From assembly GCF_965284615.1 (NCBI RefSeq), contig NZ_OZ260098.1:2732318-2796317 (forward strand): a stretch of 64,000 nt of DNA, read 5' to 3'. This document shows positions 1 through 64,000 of the stretch, in pieces. The DNA comes from Methyloversatilis sp. Its GTDB lineage: Bacteria > Pseudomonadota > Gammaproteobacteria > Burkholderiales > Rhodocyclaceae. The notes below the pieces were generated by a model. That model saw only the letters and a list, made by a program, of their open reading frames with translations. It had not been told where the DNA came from and did not search any database. The translations under genes were made by a program, and so were the position numbers. Each line of letters begins with the position of its first letter. Position 1 is the first letter of the stretch.

Positions 1-2
1 GA

Positions 3-239
3 CACATTCACCTGCCCTTCGTGCGTCCGCTCGACGGCAGCGGACGCGCCGGCTGGGCGGTGCAGGCAGGCACGGCGGTATCGAGCCGCACGCGGCGCGA
101 CGCCGGCAATTCGGTCAACCTGATCCGCCGCCACACGCGCGCGGGGCGCGCGATCTGCACGGTCGAACGCTGGGACTACCGCAGCGCGGCCGACGAGTTC
201 GAAATGGCGGCGCTCAGTGCGCTGCCGCTCGGCAACTGA
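3..239 (+). CDS. Metallophosphoesterase (calcineurin-like), C-terminal fragment, 5' truncated
   Basis: Frame 3 reads HIHLPFVRPL...WAVQAGTAVSSRTR..GNSVNLIR, i.e. the (G)HIH metal-binding motif plus the QAGTA tail typical of this family. Confidence 0.7.
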   Translation, partial: HIHLPFVRPLDGSGRAGWAVQAGTAVSSRTRRDAGNSVNLIRRHTRAGRAICTVERWDYRSAADEFEMAALSALPLGN

Positions 240-252
240 CCTTCGCACGCCC

Positions 253-1038
253 ATGCACGCCTCTCTGAGCACGCCTGCACTGCTGGCCGAAACGGTCGCC
301 GCCAACCTGCTGCCGCTGTATTTCGCGCTGCTCGCCGGCGCACTGGCACTCGCCGCCTCGACGCTGCTATCGTGGCGCCGGCTGCGCCCGGGCGGCGCGG
401 CATCGGCAGCGCGCATCGCCGGCGCCGGCGCGCTGGGCGTCGCCCTCGCCGGCAGCGTCTTCGCGCTGATCGCCACCGCCGTGACCGCTGGTCACGCGCT
501 GACCGAGTTCGACGATACGCTGGTCACCGCGCTGAGCGCCACACAGCCGGCGGACACGCTGCGCGTATTCGCGCGCCTGACCCATTTCGGCGACACGGCG
601 ACGCTCACCGCGCTTGGCATCGGCGGCGCGCTGCTGCTGGCCTGGCGGCGACACCTCGTACTGGCGGCCACCTGGGCCGCGGCGATCGCTGGCAACGCGC
701 TGCTCAACGTGTCGTTGAAGGCGCTGTTCGAGCGTGTGCGGCCGGTGCACGACCACGGCATCACGATCGAAACCAGCTGGAGCTTTCCGAGCGGCCACGC
801 GTCCGGCACGGTGGCCGCCTGGGGCATCGCCGCCTACGTAATGCTGCGGCTGCTGCCGTCGCGCTGGCACCTGCCGGTGGTACTCGCGGCGGTGGCCATC
901 GCCGTCACCACGGCGGTGAGCCGCGTCGTGCTGCAGGTGCATTTCGCCAGCGACGTGCTGGCCGGCATGGCGTCCGGCGCAGCCTGGCTGACGCTGTGCA
1001 TCACGCTGTCCGAGTTGCTGCGCCGACGCGTGCCGTGA
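253..1038 (+). CDS. PAP2-family membrane phosphatase
   Basis: Motifs KALFERVRP, SFPSGHA and SRVVLQVHFASDV; multiple TM segments. Confidence 0.9.
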   Translation: MHASLSTPALLAETVAANLLPLYFALLAGALALAASTLLSWRRLRPGGAASAARIAGAGALGVALAGSVFALIATAVTAGHALTEFDDTLVTALSATQPADTLRVFARLTHFGDTATLTALGIGGALLLAWRRHLVLAATWAAAIAGNALLNVSLKALFERVRPVHDHGITIETSWSFPSGHASGTVAAWGIAAYVMLRLLPSRWHLPVVLAAVAIAVTTAVSRVVLQVHFASDVLAGMASGAAWLTLCITLSELLRRRVP

Positions 1039-1075
1039 AAAGATGCACCCGCCCTGCTGCCCCCGGAGACCCCGC

Positions 1076-2104
1076 ATGATCGACACTTCCCGCTTCGACG
1101 CCGCCTGGTGGGGCGGTTTCATCGGCGACGCGCTGGCGATGCCGGTGCACTGGTACTACACGCGCCACCGCATCGCCGAGGACTACGGCGACATCACCAC
1201 CTATCTGCCACCGCACAACCCGCATCCGGACAGCTTCCTGTGGCGCAGCGAATACACCTGCACCGGCAGCACCGACGACATCCTGCACGAGCAGGCACGC
1301 TGGTGGAGCGGCCCGCGCGACATCCACTACCACCAGTTCCTGCACGCTGGCGAGAACACGCTGAACGTGCGCCTCGCCATGCTGCTGGCCGAGTCGCTGC
1401 TGGCCTGCGGGCGCTACGACCGCGACGACTACGCGCACCGCTACACCGATTTCATGCTGACACCGGGCATGCACGGCGACACCTATGTCGAGGAATGCCA
1501 CCGCGCCTTCTTCCGCAACTACGGCAAGGGGCTGGAAATCGACGACTGCGGCAGCGTGGACATCCACATTGGCGGGCTGGCCACGCTGGCGCCGCTCATC
1601 CTGTTCCACGCCGATGACCGCGACGCGCTGCGTGCAGCGGTGATCCAGCATGTCAACCTGACGCACAAGGGCGAGGAAATGTCGGCTGCGGCGGCGCTGT
1701 ACGCCGACCTCGCCTTCCATCTGCTGCACGGCGCGACATTCGACGACGCGCTGTCGCGCGCCGAACCCGCCGGCCATCCTGCGCTCGCCTTCCCTTACCG
1801 CGACTGGGCGGCGACGCGCGCCGACGACGAGGTGATCGGGCGACAGTTCAGCCCGGCCTGCTACCTGAAGGATGCGCTGCCGGCGACGCTGCACCTCGCG
1901 GTGAAGTACGCCGACAGGCCGCGCGACGGACTGCTCGCCAATGTGCGGATGGGCGGCGACAACTGCCATCGCGGCGTCGTGCTCGGCACGCTGCTGGGTG
2001 CCGCGAACGGGATGGCGGCGCTGCCGACGGAATGGGTAAGTGGCCTGTACGCCGCCAGCGACTGCCGGCGGCTGCTGGAGGCGTTGCGCGCTCGCGCCGC
2101 CTGA
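1076..2104 (+). CDS. ADP-ribosylglycohydrolase family protein (J1-crystallin/SelJ-like clade)
   Basis: N-terminal GFIGDALAMPVHWYY and C-terminal ANVRMGGDNCHRGVVLGTLLGA. Confidence 0.85.
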   Translation: MIDTSRFDAAWWGGFIGDALAMPVHWYYTRHRIAEDYGDITTYLPPHNPHPDSFLWRSEYTCTGSTDDILHEQARWWSGPRDIHYHQFLHAGENTLNVRLAMLLAESLLACGRYDRDDYAHRYTDFMLTPGMHGDTYVEECHRAFFRNYGKGLEIDDCGSVDIHIGGLATLAPLILFHADDRDALRAAVIQHVNLTHKGEEMSAAAALYADLAFHLLHGATFDDALSRAEPAGHPALAFPYRDWAATRADDEVIGRQFSPACYLKDALPATLHLAVKYADRPRDGLLANVRMGGDNCHRGVVLGTLLGAANGMAALPTEWVSGLYAASDCRRLLEALRARAA

Positions 2105-4129: not shown

Positions 4130-4879
4130 TCAGATCACCTGCGCCTCGGCGCGCAGGCGTTCCATCAGCTGGGCCACGCTGTCAACGCGCACGCCCGGTG
4201 TGCGCGCCGGCGGCGGCGCCATGTGCAGCGTGCGCAGGCGTGGCGCGACATCGACGCCCAGCGATTCGGGCGTCACGCTGTTGACCGGCTTCTTCTTCGC
4301 CTTCATCAGATTGGGCAGCGACACGAAGCGCGGCTCGTTCAGGCGCAGGTCGGTGGTGAGCACCGCAGGCAGCGTCAGCGCCAGCACTTCGCTGCCGCCG
4401 TCGATCTCGCGCGTCACTTCGATGTGGCCGTCACCGGGCAGCAGTTTCGACGCGTTGGTCGCCTGCGGCCAGTCGAGCAGCGCGGCCAGCATCTGGCCGG
4501 TCTGGCCGGCGTCGTCGTCGATTGCCTGCTTGCCGCAGATCACCAGTTGCGGCTGCTCGCGCTCACACAACGCATGCAGCAGGCGGGCCACGGCCAGCGG
4601 TTGAAGTTCGGCCGCGGTATCGACCAGCAAGGCGCGGTCCGCCCCCATCGCGAGCGCGCTGCGCAGCGTGTCCTGACAGGCGGCGACGCCGCAGGACACG
4701 ACCACCACCTCGGTGGCGACGCCGGCCTCCTTCAGCCGCACGGCCTCCTCCACCGCGATCTCGTCGAACGGGTTCATCGCCCGCTTGGCGCTGCCGATGT
4801 TGACATCGCTGCCATCGGCCAGCACGCGCACCTTCACGTTGTGATCGACCACGCGCTTCACCGCCACCAGCACCTTCAT
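4130..4879 (-). CDS. etfB: Electron transfer flavoprotein beta subunit
   Basis: MKVLVAVKRVVD, MNPFDEIAVEEAVRLKE, GKQAIDDDAGQTGQMLA, DLRLNEPRF. Confidence 0.95.
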   Translation of the reverse strand: MKVLVAVKRVVDHNVKVRVLADGSDVNIGSAKRAMNPFDEIAVEEAVRLKEAGVATEVVVVSCGVAACQDTLRSALAMGADRALLVDTAAELQPLAVARLLHALCEREQPQLVICGKQAIDDDAGQTGQMLAALLDWPQATNASKLLPGDGHIEVTREIDGGSEVLALTLPAVLTTDLRLNEPRFVSLPNLMKAKKKPVNSVTPESLGVDVAPRLRTLHMAPPPARTPGVRVDSVAQLMERLRAEAQVI

Positions 4880-5172: not shown

Positions 5173-6047
5173 AGCATCGCTCCCACGCCCTCGGCGCCGA
5201 CGTGCCAGTCGTGCCCGGCGAGTCCGCCCTCCTTCAGTTCTCCACCCATGGCGGCGAGGCTTTCTTCGCGGATGAGCGCCTTCAACTGGCGGTGCAGCGC
5301 GAGGAAGGTGGGCGACGAGGTCATGTCGGGCGTGCGCGGGCGCGGCAGCGGCACCGGGATTTCCGCCTTGATGCGGCCGGGGCGCGCGGTCATCACGTAG
5401 ATCTTGTCCGACAGGAAGATGGCTTCCTCGATGTCGTGCGTAATGAACAGCACCGACAGCTGCAGCTGCTGCCACATATTGGTCAGGATCTCCTGCATCA
5501 CCACGCGGGTCTGCGAATCGAGCGCGCCGAAGGGCTCGTCCATCAGCATCACCTGCGGGCTGGTGGCCAGCGCGCGGACGATGCCGACGCGCTGCTTCAT
5601 GCCGCCCGAAAGCTGGTCCGGATAGTGGTTCTCGAAGGACAGCAGGCCAGCCAGGCCGAGCAGCGTGCGCGCCTTCACTTCGCGCGTGCTGCGGCTCACG
5701 CCCTGCATCTTCAGGCCGAACTCGACGTTCTGCCGCACGCTGAGCCAGGGGAACAGCGAATACTGCTGGAACACCACGCCACGGTCGGCACCCGGCGCGG
5801 TCACGGCACGGCCATCGACGGTGACCGTGCCCTCGTCGGCGCGCAGGAAGCCGGCGACGATGTTCAGCAGCGTTGACTTGCCGCAACCGGACGGTCCGAC
5901 GATGGACACGAACTCGCCCGGCCTCACGTCCAGCGACACGTTCTTCACCGCGTCGAAGGGCACGCCGTTCTGCGTGAAGCGGATGTTCACGTCACGGATG
6001 TCGATGTGGCCGGTGGCCGATCGGGTCTGTACGGTCGATGCGTTCAT
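5169..6047 (-). CDS. ABC transporter ATP-binding protein, nitrate/sulfonate/taurine family
   Basis: GPSGCGKST, LSGGMKQRV, LMDEPFGALD, VLFITHDIEEA. Confidence 0.95.
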   Translation of the reverse strand: MNASTVQTRSATGHIDIRDVNIRFTQNGVPFDAVKNVSLDVRPGEFVSIVGPSGCGKSTLLNIVAGFLRADEGTVTVDGRAVTAPGADRGVVFQQYSLFPWLSVRQNVEFGLKMQGVSRSTREVKARTLLGLAGLLSFENHYPDQLSGGMKQRVGIVRALATSPQVMLMDEPFGALDSQTRVVMQEILTNMWQQLQLSVLFITHDIEEAIFLSDKIYVMTARPGRIKAEIPVPLPRPRTPDMTSSPTFLALHRQLKALIREESLAAMGGELKEGGLAGHDWHVGAEGVGAML

Positions 6048-7012: not shown

Positions 7013-7015
7013 GGC

Positions 7016-9830: not shown

Positions 9831-10064
9831 TCAGCGCAGCAGATAGGGAATCGACACGCTGACCGCACCGGTCGGGCAGTCGGTTTCGCACGGCAGGCAG
9901 TACCAGCACTCGTCGAACTTCATGAAGGCCTTCTTGGTGAGCATGTCGATGGCGAGCACGTCGAGCGGGCAGACGTTGACGCACACCGTGCAGCCTTTCT
10001 CCGCGATGCATTTGTCGTTGTCGACACTTACCGGCACCTGGGTCGGCGTAGCAGCGATGGTCAT
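9831..10064 (-). CDS. Small 2x[4Fe-4S] ferredoxin, AprB-like
   Basis: CIAEKGCTVCVNVCP and CWYCLPCETDCP; directly downstream of the AprA-like gene. Confidence 0.88.
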   Translation of the reverse strand: MTIAATPTQVPVSVDNDKCIAEKGCTVCVNVCPLDVLAIDMLTKKAFMKFDECWYCLPCETDCPTGAVSVSIPYLLR

Positions 10065-11912: not shown

Positions 11913-12692
11913 TCAACTTCGGTCTATGCGCAGGCGGTACTGGAAGGCATCGCCGCGGTAGTAGAGGAATTCGAAATCGATGGGCCGGTCGTCGGCCCAG
12001 GTCAGGCGTTCGATGCGCAGCAGCGGCGAGGCTTCCGCGATGTCGAGATGACGGGCGAGCGACTCGTCGGCCGAGATCGCCTCGATCTGCACGTCGGCGT
12101 GCGTGAGGTTGCGGCCGAGGTCGTTTTCGAGAATGACGAAGATGTCGCGCGTGGCCAGGTCTTCCTGGGTCAGCCGTTCGCCGATGTCCGGCGGGAAGTA
12201 GCTCACGTTGACCGAGATGGGTTCGCGGTTCAGGTAGCGCAGGCGCTGTATCTCGAACACCGGCGCTTCCGGCTTCAGCTGCAGCCGCTGGGCCACCACG
12301 GCACTGGCGGCGACCGGCTTCGCGCTGAGCAGCAGCGAGTAGGTTTCGTAGCCGGAAGTGGACATCGCCTCGCCGAAACCCTGCAGCCGCGACAGGCTCT
12401 GGAAGGCCTTGGGCTTGGCGACGAAGCTGCCCTTGCCCATCACCTTGAAGATGAGCCCCTCCTTCTGCAGGTCGCCCAGTGCCTGCCGTATCGTGATGCG
12501 GCTGACATCGAATGCCGACATCATCTGGCTCTCCGACGGCATCTGCGAATGCGGCGGGTAACTGCCGTCGAGAATGCGCCGGCGCAGGATTTCGCGGATC
12601 TGCGTGTACAGCGGCATCTGCGATACCGGCGACAGCGCGTCCTCGACCTCCGCCGCGCCCGGGGGCGCGATCTGCTTGCGGTGGGGTGCCAT
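11913..12692 (-). CDS. GntR-family regulator, HutC/UTRA subfamily
   Basis: PLYTQIRE...MPSESQMMSAFDVSRITIRQAL...GKGSFV wHTH followed by a UTRA domain. Confidence 0.93.
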   Translation of the reverse strand: MAPHRKQIAPPGAAEVEDALSPVSQMPLYTQIREILRRRILDGSYPPHSQMPSESQMMSAFDVSRITIRQALGDLQKEGLIFKVMGKGSFVAKPKAFQSLSRLQGFGEAMSTSGYETYSLLLSAKPVAASAVVAQRLQLKPEAPVFEIQRLRYLNREPISVNVSYFPPDIGERLTQEDLATRDIFVILENDLGRNLTHADVQIEAISADESLARHLDIAEASPLLRIERLTWADDRPIDFEFLYYRGDAFQYRLRIDRS

Positions 12693-14974: not shown

Positions 14975-15880
14975 ATGAATCTGCATCTTCTGCGCATCTA
15001 CGTGAAGGTCGTCGAGGTCCAGAGCTTTTCGCGCGCAGCGGAGGCGCTGGACATCACGCAGCCCGCCGTGTCGAAAGCGGTGCGCGAACTCGAATCCCAG
15101 CTCGAAACGGTGCTGCTGGACCGCCGCGGCAAGACCTTCCGGCCGAGTGAATCGGGTCGGGCACTCTATGAATACGGGCGCAGCATCCTGGCACTCGAAC
15201 GCGAGGCGACCGAAACCATCCGCGCCTACAGTTCGCTCGAACGCGGGCGGCTCACGATAGGCGCCAGCACCACCATCGCCACCTACTGGCTGCCGTCCTT
15301 CCTGGTCGATTTCCACGCCCGCCACCCTCAGGTCGAACTGCAGGTGATCAGCGGCAACACCCGGCAGATCGCCGACCTGCTGCTCGATTGCCGGGTTGAC
15401 GTGGCGCTGGTCGAAGGCGACGTGGACGACGCGCGGTTGAACCGCCGCATCTGGCGGCGCGACGAGATGGTCATCATCGCGCCACGCGACGCCGAACTGC
15501 CGCCAGGTGGCGCGCTGCGCCCGGCCGATCTGGCCGACCACAGCTGGATCGTGCGCGAACGCGGTTCCGGCAGCCGTGCCGCCACCGACCGCGTGCTCGA
15601 CGAAATGGGCCTGACGCCGGCGCGCACGATAGAGGTGGGCAGCAACGAAGCCATCGTGCAGACAGTCGCCGCCGGCCGCGGTCTGGGCATGGTGCCGCGC
15701 ATCTGCGCCCGCGACCAGCTGGCGCTTGGCCGCATCCGCCGGCTGCATCCGGGCGGCGCCGCGATCCAGCGCACGCTCTACCGCATCCGCCTGCCCGAGC
15801 GCCCGATCAGCCCCGCCGCCCTCGCCTTCGAGGCGCTGATCGCGGACACGCACACGGCCACGGACGCGGCGTCCGAGTGA
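14975..15880 (+). CDS. LysR-family regulator, YeiE/CysL-like
   Basis: SFSRAAEALDITQPAVS; GASTTIATYWLP; REKGS-like RERGSGSR; divergent from yeiH. Confidence 0.88.
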   Translation: MNLHLLRIYVKVVEVQSFSRAAEALDITQPAVSKAVRELESQLETVLLDRRGKTFRPSESGRALYEYGRSILALEREATETIRAYSSLERGRLTIGASTTIATYWLPSFLVDFHARHPQVELQVISGNTRQIADLLLDCRVDVALVEGDVDDARLNRRIWRRDEMVIIAPRDAELPPGGALRPADLADHSWIVRERGSGSRAATDRVLDEMGLTPARTIEVGSNEAIVQTVAAGRGLGMVPRICARDQLALGRIRRLHPGGAAIQRTLYRIRLPERPISPAALAFEALIADTHTATDAASE

Positions 15881-29662: not shown

Positions 29663-29697
29663 GGCGCGCATTATAGGCCTGCCGAAAAAGCTGTGAA
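29663..29697 (-). promoter_or_regulatory. sigma70 tRNA promoter with GC-rich discriminator
   Basis: TTCACA-N16-TATAAT-GCGCGCC on the minus strand. Confidence 0.7.
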
Positions 29698-45871: not shown

Positions 45872-46250
45872 AGCGCCGGTAATCGTTGACGCTGTCGAAC
45901 TGGTCCGCAAACAGCAGCAGGTGCTGTCGCCCGCCATCGCCTTCCAGCGTGACCGAAGTCCAAGCACGCCCCATTCTCGCTGCGCAGGGGCGGCCGCTCA
46001 GCGCTTCGCCGACGGACTGAACGCAAGTGAGGGATTCGCCATCCTCGCTCGCCAGCCCGCACAGGCGCCCCGCTCGCACGCGCACCGCTACCGTCAGCGG
46101 CAGCGAGAGCGCACAGAGCCCGATGGCGAGAGGGCCTAGCAGTACCGACGCAACGACAGCGGCAAGCGAGGCGAAAAAAAGGGCCACGTCGCGAAGACGT
46201 GACCCTTTCAGATGCATCTGCCGGAAGCCCTGAAGCCGCTCGCGGTTCAA
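45771..46250 (-). CDS. YgfX/CptA-like small membrane protein
   Basis: Two TM helices then LLLFADQ...YRRFRLWLR; start uncertain (46250 TTG or 46217 ATG). Confidence 0.55.
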
Positions 46251-47526: not shown

Positions 47527-47772
47527 TCAGGCCTTGCTGGCCAGATGACGGTTCACGTAATCGATGGCCTGTTGCACCGAGGTGATCTTCTCGGCTTCTT
47601 CGTCGGGGATTTCGCATTCGAACTCTTCTTCGAGCGCCATGACCAGTTCAACCGTATCGAGCGAGTCAGCGCCCAGATCGTTGACGAAAGACGATTCGTT
47701 CTTGATCTCGGCTTCGTTGACGCCCAGTTGTTCGGCAACGATCTTCTTGACGCGTTGTTCGATGTTTTCCAT
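47527..47772 (-). CDS. acpP: Acyl carrier protein
   Basis: [20 protein letters not shown]. Confidence 0.98.
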
Positions 47773-49632: not shown

Positions 49633-50595
49633 TCAGAAGCGCAGCAATACGCCGCCCCAGGTGAAACCGCCGCCTACACCCTCGAGCATCACGTTCTGGC
49701 CCCGCTTGATGCGGCCGTCACGGACGGCGATATCAAGCGCGAGCGGCACCGACGCAGCCGACGTATTGCCATGCTCGGCCACCGTGGTAACGACCTTGTC
49801 CATCGACATGTCGAGTCGCTTGGCGGTCAACTGCAGGATGCGGATATTGGCCTGGTGAGGCACCAGCCAGTCGAGCGCAGTCATCGGCAGTTCGGCTGCC
49901 TGCATCAGTTCGACCGCGGTATCGCCCAGCACGCGCACGGCGAACTTGAAAACCGCCTGGCCGTCCATCTGCAGCAAGGGCTTGCCGGCAACAGCGCCAT
50001 TGCAGACCTGGCCCGGCACCGACAGGATGTCGTGATAGTGGCCGTCGGCATGCAGCGCCGATGACAGGATGCCCGGCTCGCTCGATGCCTCGAGCACCAC
50101 TGCGCCGGCACCGTCACCGAACAGCACGCAGGTGCCGCGGTCGTTCCAGTCGAGGATGCGCGAGAACACCTCGGCACCGACGACCAGCGCACACTTGTGC
50201 GAACCCGAACGGATAAACTTCTCGGCGATGGTCAGCGCATAGACGAAACCCGAGCACACCGCCTGCACGTCGAACGCGGTCGCCACGCGGTTACCCAGCT
50301 TGTGCTGCAGCAGGCAAGCGGTACTCGGGAAAACCTGATCGGGCGTTGACGTGGCGACGATGATCAGATCGACCTCGCCCGCCTCGCGACCGGCCATTTC
50401 GAGCGCCCGACGGCTCGCATTCAGCGCGAGGTCGCTGGAATGTTCGTGCTCGGCGGCAAAGTGACGGAAGCGGATGCCGGTACGATCGGCGATCCACTCG
50501 TCCGACGTTTCGATGCCCCGTGCGACCAGATCATGGTTCGACACCGGCGCGCCGGGCAGATAGCCGCCCGTGCCGGTGATGCGGCAAAAACTCAT
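49633..50595 (-). CDS. fabH: beta-ketoacyl-ACP synthase III
   Basis: [28 protein letters not shown]. Confidence 0.97.
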
Positions 50596-51684: not shown

Positions 51685-51864
51685 TCACTCGCCCTTGGTC
51701 TTGAGCACCTTCTTGCCGCGGTAGAAACCGCTCGGCGAGATGTGATGACGCAGGTGGACCTCACCCGTGGTTGACTCGACGGCGGTGGCCGGCGCGGTCA
51801 GAAAATCATGCGCACGGTGCATGCCGCGCTTCGACGGCGACTTCTTGTTTTGCTGAACAGCCAT
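51685..51864 (-). CDS. rpmF: 50S ribosomal protein L32
   Basis: [17 protein letters not shown]. Confidence 0.97.
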
Positions 51865-51940: not shown

Positions 51941-52510
51941 TCAATTCCGTTTCAGCTGCCCGAGCACCGCGAACGGTGACGGCTTAGCCGAAGTCGTTTC
52001 CTGCTCGTTCACGCCTGCTGCCGCCGGCGCCTCGCACTGGTCGTGCAGTGGTACCGCGGGCAACGCAAGCAGCACTTCGTCCTCAACCAGTGCTGCCAGA
52101 TCGAGCGGCCCGTCGAGTTCCAGCGCCTCGAAACTGTCGTCGTCGAGATCTTCGTCGCCCCAGGCCTCGCCGGCAAATACCAGGCGGAAGCGGGACTCGC
52201 TATGCACATCGATCTGCACGTCGCCGAGACAGCGCTGGCATTGCATCACCACATCGGCCGCCACCGCGAGGGTCAACCAGCAGGCGCCTTCGGCATCTAC
52301 CGAACCGGTGAGCGACCACTCGATTCCATCGGCACTGCGGCACTCCGCCGCCAGTCGCCCGAACGATGCCAGCGCGACACGACCGGTCAGACGCTGCTGC
52401 GCACGCGCCAGCTGCTGTGCGTCGAGCCGGACACGTACTTCGTCGCCGCTCGATTCATTGCCGGCCGACACATTACCCGTTGACTTTCCGGCTCCGGCTG
52501 CTTCGGTCAT
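51941..52510 (-). CDS. yceD: DUF177/YceD protein
   Basis: CQRCL, VEDEVLLALP; upstream of rpmF. Confidence 0.9.
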   Translation of the reverse strand: MTEAAGAGKSTGNVSAGNESSGDEVRVRLDAQQLARAQQRLTGRVALASFGRLAAECRSADGIEWSLTGSVDAEGACWLTLAVAADVVMQCQRCLGDVQIDVHSESRFRLVFAGEAWGDEDLDDDSFEALELDGPLDLAALVEDEVLLALPAVPLHDQCEAPAAAGVNEQETTSAKPSPFAVLGQLKRN

Positions 52511-53241: not shown

Positions 53242-53966
53242 GCACGATGACCTCGGCGGGCACGCTCTACATGCTGCCCAGCCCGCTCGACGTCGGCGCC
53301 GATTGCGCGCTCGACACGCCAGCCGCAGTGCGCGACTGCGCACACCGCCTCGACTACTTCCTAGTGGAGAGCGCCAAGTCGGCCCGCGCCACGCTGAAGC
53401 GTCTCGAGCACCCGACGCCGCTGCGCGAGCTCGAAATCGTCGAGTTGCCGCCGGAAAAGGACGGCCGTCTGCTGCGCGACCTGCTGGCGCCCGTACTCGC
53501 CGGCCGCAGCGCCGGCGTGATTTCCGACGCAGGCTGCCCCGGCGTTGCCGACCCGGGTGCGCTGGCGGCACGTACCGCCCACACGATGGGCATCCCGGTC
53601 ATGCCGCTGGTTGGCCCATCGTCCATCCTGCTCGGTCTGATGGCGTCCGGCCTGAACGGGCAATCGTTCGCCTTCCACGGCTATCTGCCGGTCGAGGACG
53701 GCGCGCGGGCGAAGACACTGGCGGAGCTGGAGAAGCAGTCGGCGCGACTCAGACAGACCCAACTGTTCATCGAGACGCCCTATCGCAACCTGAAAATGTT
53801 CGACGCCATTCGCTCGCATTGCCGCGGCAGCACCTTGCTGTGCGTGGCGGCGGCGCTGACGGCGCCCGATCAGTTCGTGCGGACGAAGCCAGTGTCGAAG
53901 TGGACGGTGGAGGAGATCGGACGCATCGACCGCCGCCCGACACTTTTCCTCCTGCTGGCCGATTAA
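53238..53966 (+). CDS. Tetrapyrrole-methylase-family SAM methyltransferase (RsmI-like)
   Basis: ISDAGCPGVADPG, FHGYLP, FIETPYRN. Confidence 0.88.
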   Translation: MSTMTSAGTLYMLPSPLDVGADCALDTPAAVRDCAHRLDYFLVESAKSARATLKRLEHPTPLRELEIVELPPEKDGRLLRDLLAPVLAGRSAGVISDAGCPGVADPGALAARTAHTMGIPVMPLVGPSSILLGLMASGLNGQSFAFHGYLPVEDGARAKTLAELEKQSARLRQTQLFIETPYRNLKMFDAIRSHCRGSTLLCVAAALTAPDQFVRTKPVSKWTVEEIGRIDRRPTLFLLLAD

Positions 53967-55956: not shown

Positions 55957-56938
55957 GGTCTTGTTCAGTGTTGCGGGGAGCGCGATCGAAGTCGCGCGGA
56001 TGGTGCGCATCGAGCCGGCGCACGAAACCCGCCAGATCCTCCGGCAGCGGCGCCTCGATCTGCAGGCGTTCGCCGGTGAGGGGGTGGTTGAGTGCCAGAC
56101 TGTGCGCGTGCAGGAACATGCGCGGCAGCCCTTCCTTGCGCAAAGCCTTGTTCAGCGGGAAATCGCCATACTTCTCGTCGCCAGCGATCGGAAAACCGCT
56201 GGACGCCAGGTGCACGCGGATCTGGTGCGTGCGGCCGGTCTTGATGCGCACACCGAGCAGGCTGTAGCCGGGCCAGCGCGCCTCCAGTTCAACGATCGAG
56301 TGGGCCGCCTTGCCGTCGGGGTCAACCGCTACGCGGCGCTCGCCCGACTCCGTCAGATACTTGGTCAGCGCCAGCTTGATGTGCTGCAGCGGATTGAGCC
56401 AGCGGCCCTTCACCAGCGCGTAGTAGCGCTTGTCCATGCCGCCGTCGCGGAAGGCGTCGTGCAGTGCGGTCAGCGCCGAACGCTTCTTCGCCACCAGCAG
56501 GATGCCCGAGGTTTCACGGTCCAGCCGGTGCGCCAGCTCGAGCAGCTTCGCCTGCGGCCGCGCCCGGCGCAGGCTTTCGATCACGCCGAAACTGACGCCG
56601 GAGCCCCCGTGCACGGCGATACCGGCCGGCTTGTTGATGGCCAGGAAGGCGTCGTCCTCGTACAGGATGTCGAATTCGAGCGCCGGAATGGCCGCTGGAG
56701 TACCTGGATCGGCCATGCGGACAGGCGGAATGCGCACCTCGTCGCGCTCGGCCAGCCGGTAGGTCTGGTCAACCCGCTTGCTGTTAACACGCACTTCGCC
56801 GGAGCGCAGGATGCGATAGACGTGACTCTTCGGCACGCCCTTGCACACCCGCAGCAGGAAGTTGTCAATGCGCTGCCCAGCCTCCTCCGCATCCACGACA
56901 TGCCGCACAACTTTCGGAGCTTTACCCAACTCCTTCAT
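55940..56938 (-). CDS. rluC: 23S rRNA pseudouridine synthase C
   Basis: GQRIDNFL S4 domain, HRLDRETSG, GRTHQIRVH; divergent from rne. Confidence 0.94.
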   Translation of the reverse strand: MKELGKAPKVVRHVVDAEEAGQRIDNFLLRVCKGVPKSHVYRILRSGEVRVNSKRVDQTYRLAERDEVRIPPVRMADPGTPAAIPALEFDILYEDDAFLAINKPAGIAVHGGSGVSFGVIESLRRARPQAKLLELAHRLDRETSGILLVAKKRSALTALHDAFRDGGMDKRYYALVKGRWLNPLQHIKLALTKYLTESGERRVAVDPDGKAAHSIVELEARWPGYSLLGVRIKTGRTHQIRVHLASSGFPIAGDEKYGDFPLNKALRKEGLPRMFLHAHSLALNHPLTGERLQIEAPLPEDLAGFVRRLDAHHPRDFDRAPRNTEQDHARTV

Positions 56939-57316: not shown

Positions 57317-60247
57317 ATGAAACGAATGCTCTTCAACGCGACGCAGGCCGAAGAGCTGCGCGTCGCGATTGTCGATGGCCAGAAGCTTGTTGACCTCGAC
57401 ATTGAGTCATCCAGCAAGGAACAGCGCAAAAGCAACATCTACAAGGCAGTCATCACCCGCATCGAGCCCAGCCTCGAAGCATGCTTTGTCGATTACGGCG
57501 CAGACCGCCACGGCTTCCTGCCGTTCAAGGAAGTTTCCAAGTCCTATTTCAAGCCCGATCTCGAACCCGGCCGCGCCCGCATCCAGGACGCACTGTCGGT
57601 GGGTCAGGAACTGATCGTCCAGATCGACAAGGACGAACGCGGCAACAAGGGCGCCGCACTCACCACCTTCATTTCGCTGGCCGGCCGCTATCTGGTGCTG
57701 ATGCCGAACAACCCGCGCGGCGGTGGTGTTTCGCGCCGCGTCGAAGGCGACGACCGCGCCGAACTGCGCGAAACCATGGATCAGCTCGAAGTGCCTGGCG
57801 GCATGAGCCTGATCGCCCGCACCGCCGGCATCGGTCGCAACGCCGAAGAACTGCAGTGGGACCTGAACTACCTGCTGCAACTGTGGACCGCCATCGAAGG
57901 CGCCGCCCAGTCGCAGTCCGGTGCCTTCCTGATCTACCAGGAAGGCAGTCTGGTCATCCGCGCGATCCGCGACTACTTCCAGCCTGACATCGGCGAAATC
58001 CTGATCGACACCGACGAGGTGTACGACCAGGCCTACACCTTCATGGAACACGTGATGCCCGGCAACGTGGCGCGCGTGAAGCGTTACCGCGACGACGTGC
58101 CGCTGTTCTCGCGCTTCCAGATCGAACACCAGATCGAGTCCGCCTATTCGCGTCAGGTGAACCTGCCTTCGGGCGGCGCCATCGTGATCGACCACACCGA
58201 AGCACTGGTGGCGGTGGACGTGAACTCCGGCCGCTCGACCAAGGGCAGCGACATCGAGGAAACCGCGCTGCGCACCAACTGCGAAGCGGCCGACGAAATC
58301 GCCCGCCAGTTGCGTCTGCGCGACCTCGGCGGCCTGATCGTCATCGACTTCATCGACATGGAAAACCCGCGCGCCCAGCGCGAGGTGGAAACCCGCCTGC
58401 GCGACGCGCTGCATCACGACCGTGCGCGCGTGCAGATGGGCAAGATCAGCCGCTTCGGTCTGCTCGAACTGTCGCGCCAGCGCCTGCGTCCGGCGCTGGC
58501 CGAAACCAGCTACATCCCCTGCCCGCGCTGCAGCGGCACCGGCCACATCCGCTCGACCGAATCGGCTGCGCTGCACATCCTGCGCATCCTCGAAGAAGAA
58601 GCGATGAAGGAAAACACGGGTGCCGTGCACACCCAGGTGCCGGTCAACGTCGCCACCTTCCTGCTGAACGAGAAGCGGGCCGACATCAACGCGATCGAAC
58701 TGCGCCACAAGGTCAACATCGTCCTGATCCCGAACAAGTATCTGGAAACGCCGGCGCACGAGATCACCCGTCTGCGCCACGACCAGCTGAACCTCGAAGG
58801 CGTGGCCCAGCCGTCCTATCAGATGGCGGTGAATCCGTCGGCGGAGAGCTATCAGCCGCCGTCCGCCATCCCGGCCGACGAGCGCCCGAAGCGTCAGGAA
58901 GCCGCAATCAAGCACATCACGCCGGACCAGCCGGCGCCTGTCGTGGCCGAGGTCGCACCGCCCGCACCGGTCGCTGCTGCTGCGGCGGCTGCACCCGCGG
59001 CCAAGGGCGGCTTCTTCGGCTGGATCGCCGGGCTGTTCGGCGGTGGCGCTGCCGCGCCTGCCCCGGCGCCCGCTCCGGCCCCGGAAGCGAAGCCCGCGCA
59101 AACGCGCGAACGCGGTCCGCGTGGCGAGGGCGAACGCGGTCGCAACCGCAACCGTCGCGACAACCGCGAAGGACGTGAAGGTCGCGAGGGCCGCGAAGGT
59201 CGCGAACAACGCGAGCCGCGAGAGCCACGCGAAGCGCAGAGCAAGGGCGAAGGCCGCGACGGTCAGCGCAAGCAGCGTGAACCCCGTGAGCCGCGCGAAC
59301 CGCGTAACGAGCAGGAAGCTGCCACGCCGCGCGAACCGCGTCCGCCGCGCGAGCCGCGCCCGCCGCGTGAGCCGCGTGAGCCGCGCGAGCGTGCCGCCAA
59401 TGACGCACGCGAACAGCAGCAGGCACAGACCGATCTGCCGCTGGTCGCTGCCACCGGCACTCAGCCCGAGAATGTCGCGCCGGCCGAGGGTGGCGAAGGC
59501 GCCGCACCGCGCAGCCGCCGTCGCCGTGGCGGCCGCCGCGAACGTGGCGAGCGCCGTCCGGACGGCGTGGAAGGCGCAGTTGCCGATGTCGCCGCAGTCG
59601 AGGGCGATCTGACGGTGACCGACTCCGCCGCCAATGAGGTGCCGGCTGCCGCCGCCGAAGCCCAGGCCGCGTTGCCGCTGGATGTCCCCGCAGCAGCACC
59701 GATCGCCGCCGAGCAGGCCCCGTTGGCCGACGCCGCACCGGTGACCGAAACCGCTGCTGTGGCCGAAGCGCCGGTAGAGCCTGTTGTGCCGGCACCGGTG
59801 GTGTCTGCACCGGTAGCCCCGGAGCCGGCTGTGACCGAACCCGTCGCAGTGGAAACACCGGTGACCGAGCCCGTCGTGGCTGCAGTCGCTGCACTGCCGG
59901 TCGTCGAAGTGGCTGCCGAACCGGTGGCCGCACCGGCACCCGTCGTCGATCAACCGGCGCAGATCGCGGCCTCGTTGAACGATGCTGGTGAATCGACCCT
60001 GGTGCGCGCAATGGAAAGCTTCGGCTCGACGCCCCAGCCGTCCGCGCCGGCGCCTGCAATCGCACCGGCGGCCGATCTGCAGAGCACGCTGGCCGATAGC
60101 GGCCTGGTCATGGTGGAAACCTCGGCCGAGCGCGCTGCCGGCATCGAACCCGTCATCGTCGAACAGCCGCAACTGGGCCGTCGCCGTCGCCCGGCGCCGG
60201 TGATCGCCAACGAACCGATGCAGCAGGTGGAAACACGCAACGAGTAA
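57317..60247 (+). CDS. rne: Ribonuclease E
   Basis: [21 protein letters not shown]-like IVIDFIDM, Zn-link CPRC, amphipathic [12 protein letters not shown], Arg-rich and Ala/Pro/Glu-rich CTD. Confidence 0.97.
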
Positions 60248-60409: not shown

Positions 60410-60925
60410 ATGCGTCTTTTTGCAGCCCTGCTCGCCATTGTCGCCAGCACCACGGTCTTCGCGCACGGTCCGTCGCGCCTGAAGGCCAACGAAACGATCA
60501 CGCTGAAGGCCAGCCCGGACGCCGTTTGGGCCAAGGTGAAGGACTTCACGCAGCTGCAGTCCTGGCACCCGGCCGTCGAGAGCAGCATCGCCACTGCCGG
60601 CAGTGATGTCGGTTCGGTGCGCACGCTGAAGATCAAGGGCGGCGGCGAAGTGGTCGAGAAGCTGGAAGCGATTTCGGATGTCAACCGCAGCCTCACCTAT
60701 ACCGCCCAGGACGGCGGCGCGCTGCCGGTGAGCAAGTACAAGTTCACGATTACCGTGAAGCCGGCCGACGGTGGCGGTTCGACGGTGGAGTGGAAAGGCG
60801 TGTTCTTCCGCGCCGACGCGAGCGAGCATCCCGCTGCCGGCAAGGACGACGAGGCGGCCACCGGCACGATCAAGGCGGTCTATACCGACGGTCTGAAGAA
60901 TCTGAAGGCGCTGCTGGACAAGTAA
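60410..60925 (+). CDS. mxaD: Periplasmic SRPBCC protein, MxaD-like
   Basis: Signal peptide then AHGPSR...ITLKASPDAVWAKVKDF...SWHPAV; C-terminal VYTDGLKNLKA; GAGGAG RBS. Confidence 0.7.
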   Translation: MRLFAALLAIVASTTVFAHGPSRLKANETITLKASPDAVWAKVKDFTQLQSWHPAVESSIATAGSDVGSVRTLKIKGGGEVVEKLEAISDVNRSLTYTAQDGGALPVSKYKFTITVKPADGGGSTVEWKGVFFRADASEHPAAGKDDEAATGTIKAVYTDGLKNLKALLDK

Positions 60926-61442: not shown

Positions 61443-61485
61443 GTCGGGATCCCGTGCGGCACGCAGCGGCCGGCGCATCCAGCGC

Positions 61486-62433
61486 TCAAGCACAGCCACT
61501 TCCCGTAGCTATATCGAGGCGGACCGGGATGCCGCTCATCGCGTCTTCGTCGCCCCATGAACGGACGGGCAGCTCGGGCGGATCGAAGGCGGTATCCCCC
61601 TCCTCCACCACACTGCCCGGCTTCAGGCCGGCGAAATCGAACAGCTTCTGATCGGCCAGGTGCGAGGGCACGACATTGCGCATCGCCGTGGCCATCGATT
61701 CGATGCGTCCCGGATACAGCCGCGCCCACTCCTGCAGCATCGCCTTCACCTGCTTGCGCTGCGCGTTCTCCTGCGAGCCGCACAGATTGCAGGGAATGAT
61801 GGGGTAATCCATCACGCGGGCGAAGCGCTCGATGTCGCGCTCGGTGCAGTAGGCCAGCGGCCGGATGACGATGTGACGGCCGTCGTCGCTGACCAGCTTG
61901 GGCGGCATCGACTTGATCTTGCCGCCGAAGAACATGTTCAGGAACAGCGTTTCCAGCAGGTCGTCGCGGTGGTGGCCCAGCGCGATCTTGGTCGCGCCCA
62001 GTTCGGACGCCACGCGGTAGATGATGCCGCGGCGCAGCCGCGAACACAGACCGCAAGTGGTCTTGCCCTCGGGAATCTTGTCCTTGACGATGGAGTAGGT
62101 GTCTTCGGTCTCGATGCGGTACTCGACGCGGATCGACTCGAAATAGGCCGGCAGGATGTGATCCGGAAAGCCCGGCTGCTTCTGGTCGAGATTGAAGGCG
62201 ATCAGCCGGAAGCGCACAGGCGCCCGCTCCTGCAGGCCGCGCAGCAGTTCCAGCATCGTGTACGAATCCTTGCCGCCGGACATGCACACCATGATCACGT
62301 CGCCGTCCTCGATCATCGAGTAATCGCCGATGGCCTGCCCCACGGCGCGTTCGAGACGCTTGCGGAACTTGAGGAAGGTGTTGGACAGCGGCTCGGCAGC
62401 GGCGGCCGGAACGGGAGCGAGGACCTGCGACAT
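61486..62433 (-). CDS. ttcA: tRNA 2-thiocytidine(32) synthetase
   Basis: SGGKDS PP-loop, [24 protein letters not shown]. Confidence 0.96.
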
Positions 62434-62811
62434 GGTGAGCGACGCAGCTGCGCTGCGCGACATGATCTGAAGCGCTGATTATAGCCGGCTCATCGACGGC
62501 CCGGCCCGTGCGCCGCGCCCCGGCCAGGGTACCTTTGCCCACCGCCGGTCTCCGACGAGATCTGCAGATCCCTTCACGGGCCGTCGGTGCACATCGGACG
62601 ATGCCGTTGGAGGCGGCCATATGCGCTTTCCTGCGTCGAGTCATGGCTGCGCCCTTGGACTGCGACAGCCTCGCCAGCATCGCGCAGGGGAGGGCGGCGA
62701 CAGGCTGGCGGACACCATTCCATTCGCAAAAGACTGTGTCCTGCGCACACATTCATCGATACGGCATCAGCACGAACTAAAATGCGCTGACCATTTTTCA
62801 GCCCATTCGTC

Positions 62812-63489
62812 ATGCTCCGCATCCTTGTCCTGATACTCGGCACTCTCATCAGTCAGGCCGCTCTTGCACAGGCCGTCAGGGCACCCGAATTCGACCGTCT
62901 CGCCGGCAATTCGCGCATCGTCCTGATGCCGCTCGACGTTGAACTGTTCACGATGACCGCCGGCGGGATGACCGAGCCACAGGCGCACTGGACCGAACAG
63001 GCACGAAACCATCTGCTCGCGTCGCTCAGACGGCGGGAGGCCGCGATGGACACGCCGCTGATCGAGCTCGCTGATCAGGACATAAAGGTGGCGGAACTGA
63101 ATCACCTGCACGGTGCCGTCGCCGGTGCCATCGCCCTGCACCACTACCTCACCCATTACGAATTGCCGACCAAGGAAAAGCGCATGGACTGGCATATCGG
63201 TGCCGACACCGACTGGCTGCGCGAGAAGACCGGAGCCGACTACGCACTGTTCCTTTTCGTGCGCGACAGCTACGCCACTGCCGAGCGCAAGATGACGATG
63301 TTCCTTGCCGCCATGCTCGGCGTCGGCATTCCGGCGGGCATACAGATCGGCTACGCCTCGCTGGTTGACCTTCAGACCGGCCAGATCGTGTGGTTCAACC
63401 GACTGGTGCGTGGCACCGGCGACCTGCGGGAAGCCGAACCGGCGGAAGAATCCATCACCGCGCTGCTCGACAAGTTTCCGCGCCAATGA
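62812..63489 (+). CDS. Exported hypothetical protein
   Basis: Signal peptide; GADYALFLFVRD...ASLVDLQTGQIVWFN (CsgG/TolB-N-like tail); ATGA-coupled to the next gene. Confidence 0.7.
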   Translation: MLRILVLILGTLISQAALAQAVRAPEFDRLAGNSRIVLMPLDVELFTMTAGGMTEPQAHWTEQARNHLLASLRRREAAMDTPLIELADQDIKVAELNHLHGAVAGAIALHHYLTHYELPTKEKRMDWHIGADTDWLREKTGADYALFLFVRDSYATAERKMTMFLAAMLGVGIPAGIQIGYASLVDLQTGQIVWFNRLVRGTGDLREAEPAEESITALLDKFPRQ

Positions 63490-64000
63490 CGCAGCGTCGC
63501 GATGCCTCGCCGGCCGATATGTACCGGCGCGACCTCCTGTGCAGTTGCTGCTCCGGCGCACTACTGTCGCTGCTGCCCTCGCTCGCGCGGGCTGCGTACG
63601 ACATGCCGGCCCGCTTCGAGCGTCCGGACATCGCCACCGACGAGGGCGGGCTCTGGGCCATGATGGACCGCGAGGAGGAGAAGCTCAGACACTCGCGCTT
63701 CCTGCTCGGCGACGCCGAACTGCAGCGCTATGTGTCCGATATCGCATGCCGGCTTGCCGGCAATCACTGTCCGGACATGCGCGTGTATCTGGTGCGCACG
63801 CCATTCTTCAACGCCAGCATGGCACCCAACGGCATGATGCAGGTGTGGAGCGGACTGCTGCTGCGCGCCTCCAATGAAGCCCAGCTGGCGGCCGTGCTCG
63901 CGCACGAGGTCGGCCACTACCTGAAGCGTCACAGCCTGGAGCGGATGCGCGACGCGCGTTCGAAGTCAGCGCTGGCCCAGTTCGTGGGCATGGCACTGGG
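63486..64000 (+). CDS. M48-family zinc metallopeptidase, 3' truncated
   Basis: FNASMAPNG...EAQLAAVLAHEVGH; RRDLL twin-arginine-like leader. Confidence 0.88.
   Translation, partial: MTQRRDASPADMYRRDLLCSCCSGALLSLLPSLARAAYDMPARFERPDIATDEGGLWAMMDREEEKLRHSRFLLGDAELQRYVSDIACRLAGNHCPDMRVYLVRTPFFNASMAPNGMMQVWSGLLLRASNEAQLAAVLAHEVGHYLKRHSLERMRDARSKSALAQFVGMAL

Follow-up and report, generated by a model that had tools for sequence, protein, structure and literature searches.

GTCGAC depletion in a 64-kb stretch of a Methyloversatilis assembly is very probably a modification-linked consensus error

The stretch analyzed here, which we call the window, comprises 64,000 bases (66.2% G+C) of contig NZ_OZ260098.1 of the Methyloversatilis sp. 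assembly GCF_965284615.1, positions 2,732,318 to 2,796,317. It carries housekeeping genes throughout, among them purL, uvrC, nagZ, acpS, pdxJ, recO, era, rnc, lepB, lepA, an rpoE-rseABC-degP cluster, the fabF-acpP-fabG-fabD-fabH-plsX-rpmF genes, and rne. Reading frames were set by codon-usage log-likelihood and the 62 predicted genes were named by Pfam. The subject of this analysis is the palindromic hexamer GTCGAC, which is nearly absent from the window while GTTGAC and GTCAAC are in excess. We conclude that the depletion is very probably a motif-specific consensus error in the assembly, linked to DNA modification, as has been described for native-DNA nanopore assemblies.

An exact count found four intact copies of GTCGAC in the window, at 10020, 22434, 23799, and 26415, next to 37 GTTGAC, 17 GTCAAC, and three GTTAAC on the + strand. 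A first-pass annotation of this DNA had noted about four intact copies and about 55 variants; its counts and positions were right, and the scarcity is far beyond chance. It had proposed to compare observed with expected hexamer counts, and under a fourth-order Markov model GTCGAC is indeed the lowest-represented of all 4096 hexamers in the window (4 vs 50.1 expected, z = -6.5). Dinucleotide-preserving shuffles of the window contain 31.7±5.8 copies. GTTGAC, counted on both strands, occurs 54 times compared to 26.0±5.1 in the shuffled sequences, and none of 100 shuffles got to 54. Neighbors that share the TCGA core are plentiful, with 39–75 copies each (ATCGAC 62, CTCGAC 75, TTCGAC 39, and GTCGA followed by A, G, or T 51, 67, and 56, respectively). 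In 80 relatives, the observed/expected ratio (O/E) of GTCGAC is about 0.5–1.0, and none approaches the 4 vs 50 seen here.

We compared the window with several other data sets. Many public runs proved to contain nearly the same sequence. The best of them, X1, a run labelled as a lake water metagenome, contains the same strain at a word depth of 70–90 and holds 94% of the sampled 31-mers of the window; the absent 6% is roughly what one changed hexamer per ~1.2 kb would take out. The X1 contigs were compared with the whole window in four pieces, and the main contigs showed no indels. X2 contains the same strain in a sample labelled with a single organism and is fragmented (830,456 contigs, 286 Mb), and X29 is a second run from the sample and study of X2, in which the organism has a depth of 3–6x and the contigs cover 13 of the altered sites. 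X3 and X4 represent more distant strains and were compared at 21 sites between 30000 and 48000, while eight conspecific assemblies or metagenome contigs (L001–L008), 96.7–99.3% identical to the window over ~7 kb, cover five error sites. Residue conservation was assessed in up to 80 betaproteobacterial loci. The public runs carry no record of their platform, so it is this run-to-run comparison that underlies the artefact verdict.

X1 and the window differ at 55 bases, which all lie in 53 hexamers, with zero differences elsewhere across the 64 kb (Table 1). At these hexamers X1 reads GTCGAC 48 times, GTCAAC four times, and GTCGGC once. The window shows GTTGAC at 33 of the 48 GTCGAC sites, GTCAAC at 13, and GTTCAC at two (18834 and 60742). 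The four GTCAAC sites of X1 appear as GTTAAC (34923 and 37938) or GTGAAC (29693 and 33240), and the single GTCGGC as GTTGGC (53610). X29 has the base of X1 at 13/13 covered sites and no further difference from the window. X3 and X4 likewise have the base of X1 at 21/21 sites, and so do L001–L008 at 5/5 covered sites; the latter match the window where the region they cover has native sites, three in number. The real DNA carries GTCGAC at 48 sites miswritten in the window and GTCAAC at three to four further miswritten sites. Expressed as rates, 48/52 true GTCGAC copies (92%) are miscalled, compared to 3–4 of 12 native GTCAAC/GTTGAC copies, 0/1 GTTAAC, and 0 of ~63,600 non-motif bases.

These readings allowed us to revisit the individual claims of the first-pass annotation. 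All 12 residue repairs that it had listed match X1, i.e., the same strain in independent data, and 28322, which it had set aside as native, is identical in X1. Its rule that the inner C of the hexamer always changes to T, on one strand or the other, holds for 49/53 sites; the other four contain transversions, G-to-C at 18834 and 60742 and C-to-G at 29693 and 33240. Its list overlooked the GTTCAC, GTGAAC, and GTTGGC sites, which have lost the appearance of GTYRAC, and two of the three GTTAAC copies that it had counted among the variants (34923 and 37938) derive from native GTCAAC and not from GTCGAC. Among five sites that it had cited as giving rare synonymous codons, 5872, 39040, and 50345 are such errors, while 44002 and 57389 are native. 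Short-read evidence of GTCGAC had been named as the sign of an artefact, and X1 (canonical hexamer at 53/53 sites) and X29 (13/13) give that outcome, by run-to-run comparison and not from confirmed short reads.

X2 agrees with the window outside GTCGAC-like hexamers. At the motif, its contigs break before hexamer position 3 and after position 4, as seen at 31552/31555, 32773/32776, 27376/27381, 28899/28902, and 7006/7009. At 24021, 32937, 37497, 45885, and 51770, the GTTGAC of the window is GTCAAC in X2, and at 1652, 4181, 56321, 56768, and 60680, the GTCAAC of the window is GTTGAC in X2. At 5874, 32774, and 49829 it holds two alleles with divided depth, and it is miscalled at three of the four GTCGAC sites that are intact in the window (10020, 23799, and 26415). 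Such breaks and alternative alleles make fixed mutations in a clonal genome impossible. The pattern is that of a k-mer assembler given two read orientations with different miscalls at one palindrome. What X2 displays is contigs that end and restart, or that carry the complementary variant or divided depth; contigs are directionless, and strand specificity is not visible in them. Taken together, one motif is affected while the rest is perfect, the transitions sit at the palindrome center, and reads are discordant at the same columns, which is the pattern of an artefact and the one published for nanopore sequencing of native DNA from bacteria with methylation that the basecaller copes with poorly.

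X2 alone, and neither the window nor X1, also miscalls near-cognate hexamers: two GTCGTC copies are written GTTGTC, one GTCGAG is written GTTGAG, and one GTAGAC is written GTAAAC (at 8319–8324, 16788–16793, 29900–29905, and 37251–37256). These may reflect star methylation or a general basecaller weakness at GTC-G / G-AC. A 1-base deletion at 32563, two bases 5' of the site at 32565, is likewise confined to X2.

Table 1. Altered, intact, and native motif sites in the window, with the reading of X1 and of the other data sets
Positions	Window	X1	Product and effect	Base evidence and conservation
1652..1657	GTCAAC	GTCGAC	ADP-ribosylglycohydrolase, D>N	X1 G at 1655; X2 GTTGAC
4181..4186	GTCAAC	GTCGAC	ETF beta, synonymous	X1 G at 4184; X2 GTTGAC
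4280..4285	GTTGAC	GTCGAC	ETF beta, D>N	X1 C at 4282
4799..4804	GTTGAC	GTCGAC	ETF beta, D>N	X1 C at 4801
5872..5877	GTTGAC	GTCGAC	ABC ATPase, Walker A Ser codon, synonymous	X1 C at 5874; X2 mixed, 22.3/69.5 depth
7005..7010	GTTGAC	GTCGAC	Intergenic	X1 C at 7007; X2 ends 7006, restarts 7009
9975..9980	GTTGAC	GTCGAC	4Fe-4S ferredoxin, CVDVCP, D>N	X1 C at 9977
12207..12212	GTTGAC	GTCGAC	GntR/UTRA regulator, D>N	X1 C at 12209
15395..15400	GTTGAC	GTCGAC	LysR regulator, synonymous	X1 C at 15397
17127..17132	GTTGAC	GTCGAC	PurL, D>N	X1 C at 17129
18096..18101	GTTGAC	GTCGAC	PurL, PVDM, D>N	X1 C at 18098
18834..18839	GTTCAC	GTCGAC	PurL, D>N; two bases, one transversion	X1 CG at 18836-18837; X2 ends 18836
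19083..19088	GTTGAC	GTCGAC	PurL, D>N	X1 C at 19085
20810..20815	GTCAAC	GTCGAC	Thioredoxin-TPR (CnoX-like), LVDFW, D>N	X1 G at 20813
22746..22751	GTCAAC	GTCGAC	Na/Ca exchanger, D>N	X1 G at 22749
24021..24026	GTTGAC	GTCGAC	Hybrid sensor kinase, synonymous	X1 C at 24023; X2 GTCAAC
25680..25685	GTCAAC	GTCGAC	Sensor kinase receiver domain, LVVDDN, D>N	X1 G at 25683; X2 starts 25684
27375..27380	GTTGAC	GTCGAC	Solute-binding protein, synonymous	X1 C at 27377; X2 ends 27376, starts 27381
28592..28597	GTTGAC	GTCGAC	Solute-binding protein, D>N	X1 C at 28594
28898..28903	GTTGAC	GTCGAC	Solute-binding protein, D>N	X1 C at 28900; X2 ends 28899, starts 28902
29693..29698	GTGAAC	GTCAAC	Intergenic	X1 C at 29695; ambiguous, X2 sides with window
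30466..30471	GTCAAC	GTCGAC	UvrC, RLTSTL, S>L	X1, X3, X4 G at 30469; X29; Ser 18/18 relatives
31551..31556	GTTGAC	GTCGAC	UvrC, D>N	X1, X3, X4 C at 31553; X29; X2 ends 31552, starts 31555
32565..32570	GTTGAC	GTCGAC	NagZ, D>N	X1, X3, X4 C at 32567; Asp 44/44
32772..32777	GTTGAC	GTCGAC	NagZ, D>N	X1, X3, X4 C at 32774; X2 ends 32773, starts 32776; Asp 42/44
32937..32942	GTTGAC	GTCGAC	NagZ, AVDHEGG, D>N	X1, X3, X4 C at 32939; X2 GTCAAC; Asp 44/44
33240..33245	GTGAAC	GTCAAC (native)	AcpS, L>F	X1-X4 C at 33242; X29; Leu 50/50
34923..34928	GTTAAC	GTCAAC (native)	RecO, D>N	X1-X4 C at 34925
35894..35899	GTCAAC	GTCGAC	Era, P-loop GKS, S>L	X1-X4 G at 35897; X29; Ser 71/71
35913..35918	GTTGAC	GTCGAC	Era, G1 motif, R>Q	X1, X3, X4 C at 35915; X29; Arg 71/71
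37497..37502	GTTGAC	GTCGAC	LepB, SVDYIKR, D>N	X1, X3, X4 C at 37499; X29; X2 GTCAAC; Asp 71/76
37560..37565	GTTGAC	GTCGAC	LepB, D>N	X1, X3, X4 C at 37562; X29; X2 ends 37561
37938..37943	GTTAAC	GTCAAC (native)	LepA C-terminus, D>N	X1-X4 C at 37940; X29
39040..39045	GTTGAC	GTCGAC	LepA, synonymous	X1, X3, X4 C at 39042
39414..39419	GTTGAC	GTCGAC	LepA, VVDAS, D>N	X1, X3, X4 C at 39416; Asp 80/80
39474..39479	GTTGAC	GTCGAC	LepA, DTPGHVDF, D>N	X1, X3, X4 C at 39476; Asp 78/80
41794..41799	GTTGAC	GTCGAC	RseC, D>N	X1, X3, X4 C at 41796; X29
42723..42728	GTCAAC	GTCGAC	RseB, synonymous	X1, X3, X4 G at 42726; X29
45308..45313	GTTGAC	GTCGAC	FAD flavoprotein, synonymous	X1, X3, X4 C at 45310; X29; X2 ends 45309
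45885..45890	GTTGAC	GTCGAC	Intergenic	X1, X3, X4 C at 45887; X2 GTCAAC
46606..46611	GTTGAC	GTCGAC	FabF, D>N	X1, X3, X4 C at 46608; X29; variable in relatives
47680..47685	GTTGAC	GTCGAC	Acyl carrier protein, [12 protein letters not shown]>N	X1, X3, X4 C at 47682; X29
49826..49831	GTCAAC	GTCGAC	FabH, S>L	X1 G at 49829; X2 mixed, 32.3/69.7, ends 49827; variable in relatives
50345..50350	GTTGAC	GTCGAC	FabH, synonymous	X1 C at 50347; X2 starts 50349
51770..51775	GTTGAC	GTCGAC	Ribosomal protein L32, synonymous	X1 C at 51772; L001-L008 C; X2 GTCAAC
52479..52484	GTTGAC	GTCGAC	YceD, synonymous	X1 C at 52481; L001-L008 C
53610..53615	GTTGGC	GTCGGC	Synonymous; near-cognate, 1 of ~190 such sites	X1 C at 53612; L001-L008 C; X2 ends 53601, starts 53613
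56321..56326	GTCAAC	GTCGAC	Pseudouridine synthase, synonymous	X1 G at 56324; L001-L008 G; X2 GTTGAC
56768..56773	GTCAAC	GTCGAC	Pseudouridine synthase, synonymous	X1 G at 56771; L001-L008 G; X2 GTTGAC
58643..58648	GTCAAC	GTCGAC	RNase E, VPVDVA, D>N	X1 G at 58646; X2 starts 58647
60680..60685	GTCAAC	GTCGAC	SRPBCC protein, D>N	X1 G at 60683; X2 GTTGAC
60742..60747	GTTCAC	GTCGAC	SRPBCC protein, S>F; two bases	X1 CG at 60744-60745; X2 G at 60745 only
63364..63369	GTTGAC	GTCGAC	Synonymous	X1 C at 63366
10020..10025	GTCGAC (intact)			X2 GTTGAC
22434..22439	GTCGAC (intact)	GTCGAC		X1 and X2 concur
23799..23804	GTCGAC (intact)			X2 GTTGAC
26415..26420	GTCGAC (intact)			X2 GTCAAC
114..119	GTCAAC (native, right)	GTCAAC		X1 identical
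26435..26440	GTTGAC (native, right)	GTTGAC		X1 identical
28322..28327	GTTGAC (native, right)	GTTGAC		X1 identical
44002..44007	GTCAAC (native, right)	GTCAAC		X1 identical
47716..47721	GTTGAC (native, right)	GTTGAC		X1 identical
52272..52277	GTCAAC (native, right)	GTCAAC		X1 and L001-L008 identical
56783..56788	GTTAAC (native, right)	GTTAAC		X1 and L001-L008 identical
57389..57394	GTTGAC (native, right)	GTTGAC		X1 and L001-L008 identical
58712..58717	GTCAAC (native, right)	GTCAAC		X1 identical

The 53 altered hexamers result in 35 missense and 15 synonymous changes, with three being intergenic, and the false missense changes are spread over 26 of the 62 predicted genes. Asp to Asn is the commonest, arising where GTC-GAC lies in frame. 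Ser to Leu occurs three times (UvrC, Era, and FabH), and the remaining missense changes are Arg to Gln (Era), Leu to Phe (AcpS), and Ser to Phe (SRPBCC protein). At the LepA, Era, NagZ, AcpS, UvrC, and LepB sites, X1 encodes the residue of the family and the window does not. The argument from family consensus made in the first-pass annotation is weak at FabF (46606) and FabH (49826), where the position varies among relatives; X1 nonetheless reads GTCGAC at both. In Era, the G1 motif G-R-PNVGK-S is hit twice, at an Arg and a Ser that are each present in 71/71 relatives. The Ser/Thr of the GTPase P-loop (G1 motif GxxxxGK[S/T]) coordinates magnesium, and a Leu at this position would therefore inactivate Era. 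The LepA product of the window had no exact match in a large protein collection, which fits errors private to this assembly.

The Asp of the LepA motif DTPGHVDF is also Asn in two relatives, L013 (10001–11788), a Rhodocyclaceae metagenome-assembled genome (MAG) named '.ont.bin.546' in which the codon context is GTTAAC, and L074 (10001–11797), the complete chromosome of Ralstonia sp. 25C, in which it is GTCAAC. A motif-wide loss of GTCGAC was looked for in both and found in neither. Both cases thus resemble sporadic miscalls of this type, or genuine variants that are rare.

Correction with the X1 bases gives a window with 52 GTCGAC, 12 GTTGAC plus GTCAAC, and one GTTAAC. GTCGAC is then merely mildly low (52 vs 75 expected under the Markov model), matching the pooled relatives, in which its O/E is 0.79 and that of CTCGAG 0.67. 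CTCGAG, the XhoI site, is itself depleted in the window: with 12 copies vs 41–44 expected (z = -4.8), it is the second lowest-represented hexamer, and its O/E of ~0.29 contrasts with the 0.67 of the pooled relatives, which are high-GC betaproteobacteria. X1 shows no differences at CTCGAG sites, so this depletion is native, and it may represent genuine restriction avoidance in the lineage.

Modification-dependent consensus error was also the explanation preferred in the first-pass annotation, and it is supported by X1, X29, X3, X4, the conspecifics, and the heterogeneity of X2. A plausible course of events can be proposed as follows. The strain would modify GTCGAC, and probably all GTYRAC, on both strands, and in nanopore-type sequencing of native DNA the modified base would distort the signal from whichever strand passes through the pore. 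Each read would then miscall the central base on its own strand, a G-to-A change before 'AC' being equal to a C-to-T change after 'GT'. At a palindrome, the wrong hexamer given by plus-strand reads would be complementary to the wrong hexamer given by minus-strand reads, so that almost no read would be true and the polisher would be left choosing between two wrong versions. Modification of the palindrome on both strands would account for the error rate of 48/52. At the half-sites GTCAAC and GTTGAC, one strand would be affected and the consensus less often wrong, and the two GTTCAC sites could each combine one error from either orientation. MAGs named after Oxford Nanopore sequencing (ONT; '.ont.bin') keep normal numbers of GTCGAC (35 vs 37.9 expected in L056 and 10 vs 16.1 in L013), and a strain-specific factor is therefore needed.

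Several observations weigh against this explanation. For X2 and for the assembly, no sequencing platform is recorded; the 830,456 contigs and 286 Mb that X2 yields under a one-organism label fit noisy long reads without proving them. Strand-specific miscalling is deduced from contig breaks and alternative alleles, in contigs that lack strand information, and the modification at GTCGAC from the miscalls only. No DNA methyltransferase domain was detected by Pfam among the 62 predicted open reading frames (ORFs) of the window. The consensus error of 92% is far above the ~2% of methylated GAAGAC sites reported in a Listeria study. Finally, the excess of GTTGAC over GTCAAC on the + strand (33:13, binomial p = 0.0045) is unexplained. 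Read on the coding strand, the split is GTCAAC 32 vs GTTGAC 11, and the flanking bases from -5 to +5 show no asymmetry that accounts for the choice between the two. The effects of gene strand, + strand, and probable replication strand cannot be told apart in the 33:13 split, which is probably a polisher bias tied to the orientation of the assembly.

An artefact that involves no modification, either a context failure of basecaller, assembler, or polisher or a chemistry that converts methyl-C to T, is unlikely. It would be in keeping with the modification being known from miscalls alone, with the miscalling in X2 of GTCGTC, GTCGAG, and GTAGAC, which are presumably unmodified, and with the 33:13 choice of error, which resembles software bias. 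On the other hand, a context failure should also have struck the ONT-named assemblies, which keep their GTCGAC, and paired native and amplified data place errors of this type in methylated motifs (bioRxiv 10.64898/2026.01.14.699587). A conversion chemistry leaves the G-to-C and C-to-G errors at 18834, 29693, 33240, and 60742 unaccounted for.

We consider it highly improbable that GTTGAC and GTCAAC are the true sequence, produced by 5-methylation of the inner C and genome-wide deamination, an alternative that the first-pass annotation had kept. The 49/53 changes that are C-to-T or G-to-A, at a CpG within a hexamer for which 5-methylcytosine (m5C) methyltransferases are known, do have the look of deamination. 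However, X1, which is otherwise identical over 64 kb, is unmutated at 53/53 sites, as is X29 at 13/13 covered sites in the very sample from which X2 was obtained. The opposite variants and breaks of X2 are impossible for fixed clonal mutations, and deamination does not yield the transversions at the four GTTCAC and GTGAAC sites. In addition, such mutations would have destroyed the P-loop Ser of Era, the Asp of LepA VVDAS, and other invariant housekeeping residues, and some 50 mutations at one motif with none elsewhere in 64 kb make an implausible history.

Even less credible is that GTCGAC was purged from the genome by selection from a SalI-like enzyme. Palindromes are mildly low in this group, as the O/E values of GTCGAC and CTCGAG in the pooled relatives and the corrected counts given above (52 vs 75 and 12 vs 41–44) show. 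Nevertheless, GTCGAC is present at the positions in question in the same strain and in conspecifics, and the depletion of 4 vs 50 recurs in no relative. Moreover, selection would favor synonymous escapes such as GTG GAC or GTC GAT, and not Asp-to-Asn changes at invariant residues. We also reject a mixed population in which each site has two mutant alleles, as X29 and X1 read the wild-type hexamer.

If modification-linked consensus error is accepted, there are a few candidates for the nature of the modification. The claim of the first-pass annotation that a modification of GTCGAC is implied stands, possibly with the broader target GTYRAC, while the data do not single out the inner C, which it had proposed along with an adjacent base: GTC and GAC are reverse complements and contigs are directionless, so that C at position 3 read as T and G at position 4 read as A are indistinguishable. 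The miscalls at native GTCAAC/GTTGAC suggest that half-sites are probably modified as well and hence that the target is probably GTYRAC rather than GTCGAC alone.

HincII/HindII-type enzymes, which recognize GTYRAC, make N6-methyladenine (m6A), and M.SalI and M.HincII/M.HindII are m6A enzymes. One possibility, which falls somewhat short of being probable, is a HincII/HindII-like enzyme that makes GTYR-m6A-C, with the 5' G being read as A and sometimes as C. This would agree with the errors at 3–4 of 12 native half-sites vs 0 of ~63,600 non-motif bases, with their location opposite the G of the GTTGAC strand, and with the lone GTTAAC, in which neither strand has a G at position 4 and which is correct. 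In R10.4.1 data, G-to-A is the dominant methylation-associated error (bioRxiv 10.64898/2026.01.14.699587), and G-6mA-C is also the ending of GAAG(6mA)C, the worst motif published (bioRxiv 10.1101/2024.07.12.603236). Against m6A, all observations fit a miscalled C at position 3 equally well by symmetry, 8/12 native half-sites are correct, and no matching enzyme was found among the ORFs of the window.

The other possibility, which we rate about equal, is that the inner cytosine of GTCGAC is modified to m5C or N4-methylcytosine (m4C) and read as T. Methyltransferases that make m5C in GTCGAC are documented or predicted, including in Burkholderiales (PMC6329791, PMC12714287): M.HgiDII is specific for GTCGAC (PMC6329791), and Burkholderia pseudomallei has a predicted m5C GTCGAC restriction-modification system on a mobile segment (PMC12714287). 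The methyl group that 5-methyl-C shares with T would make a C-to-T miscall chemically intuitive, and the other strand of the Listeria motif, GT(4mC)TTC, starts with the same GT-4mC (bioRxiv 10.1101/2024.07.12.603236). A strict GTCGAC enzyme, however, leaves the errors in native GTCAAC at 33240, 34923, and 37938 unexplained, and a relaxed GTCRAC specificity would be needed. The recognition sequences of GTCGAC/GTYRAC methyltransferases do fit the miscalled set, which includes nearly all GTCGAC and some GTCAAC/GTTGAC, whereas no such gene is present among the 62 predicted ORFs of the window. There is a slim chance that the group is bulkier or more unusual, for example a derivative of 7-deazaguanine in place of the central G, or a phosphorothioate in the backbone, which would explain a consensus error of 92% compared to ~2% for the worst methyl motif in Listeria.

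The phenomenon itself is already known, and the depletion is not a real feature of the genome. With R10.4.1, the excess of substitutions in native over amplified DNA lies in methylation motifs and is dominated by G-to-A, the alternative base exceeds 50% at some positions, and the surviving false single-nucleotide polymorphisms (SNPs) are strand-biased and C-to-T in reference orientation (bioRxiv 10.64898/2026.01.14.699587). This is the same class of error, bound to motifs and with false SNPs that pass filters, but that study gives 28 surviving calls over six genomes, compared to 53 in 64 kb here, and the passages covered do not name GTCGAC. Near-perfect assemblies of Listeria monocytogenes contain 18–23 errors each at GAAG(6mA)C/GT(4mC)TTC (bioRxiv 10.1101/2024.07.12.603236). 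There too, one short motif is methylated by a strain-specific restriction-modification system and false alleles arise in conserved genes, and its half-motifs (GT-C..., ...G-A-C) are the halves of GTCGAC. The two cases differ in that ~2% of ~1000 motif sites are wrong in Listeria vs 92% (48/52) here, in that the motif is asymmetric there whereas here a palindrome is hit in both orientations at the same two columns, and in that platform and modification are documented there and inferred here. ONT genomes of ~Q30 that result from lineage-specific modification at GCAGC / GCTGG have been corrected with Modpolish (PMC10687267). The present window, with 55 wrong bases in 64,000 (~Q30.7), is of similar quality and can likewise be repaired from close relatives, here X1 and L001–L008; motif and organism differ, and the earlier data were R9.4/R10.4 of known provenance. 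Literature searches for GTCGAC with nanopore errors and for GTYRAC with 6mA returned no report of this motif as a source of errors.

NCBI taxonomy places Methyloversatilis in Betaproteobacteria, Sterolibacteriaceae. One of the conspecifics, GCA_018780585.1 (97.3% identical to the window over ~7 kb), has been named Methyloversatilis discipulorum_A (PMC10576062). A LepA scan of representative genomes gave, among the matches listed, only other genera with 77–86% protein identity, the closest being Rhodocyclaceae proteins with 85–86%. The same strain, with 64 kb identical except at the motif sites, is present at ~80–130x word depth in two runs, one labelled as lake water metagenome and the other as a single other organism, and close relatives were seen in soil, rice paddy, freshwater, sludge, and biofilm runs as well as in several runs labelled as other organisms. 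In such runs, the strain may have grown in association with a culture, or it may stem from contamination of the laboratory or water. Apart from the housekeeping genes, the window contains a cluster at 5169–14874 that encodes an ABC transporter (ATPase, permease, and NMT1-type binding protein), two ferredoxins, a HEAT-repeat protein, a fumarate-reductase/AprA-type FAD flavoprotein, a GntR/UTRA regulator, a TauE/SafE sulfite exporter, and a PF03601 membrane protein; judged by its sequence, this gene content suggests a role in sulfonate or sulfur-compound metabolism.

As it stands, the public sequence contains about one wrong base per 1.2 kb (~Q31), all of them linked to the motif. The 35 false substitutions in 64 kb touch catalytic or invariant residues of Era, LepA, NagZ, UvrC, AcpS, LepB, and the acyl carrier protein; extrapolated at the same density, each Mb would contain ~800 wrong bases and ~500 false missense changes. 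Such false variants pass into protein databases, SNP phylogenies, and selection analyses, yet they are easily mended by short-read or methylation-aware polishing. For the organism, the biological import is very little, its DNA having a normal complement of GTCGAC. The error pattern nevertheless hints at the likely methylation motif of the strain, GTCGAC and probably GTYRAC, without a methylome experiment.

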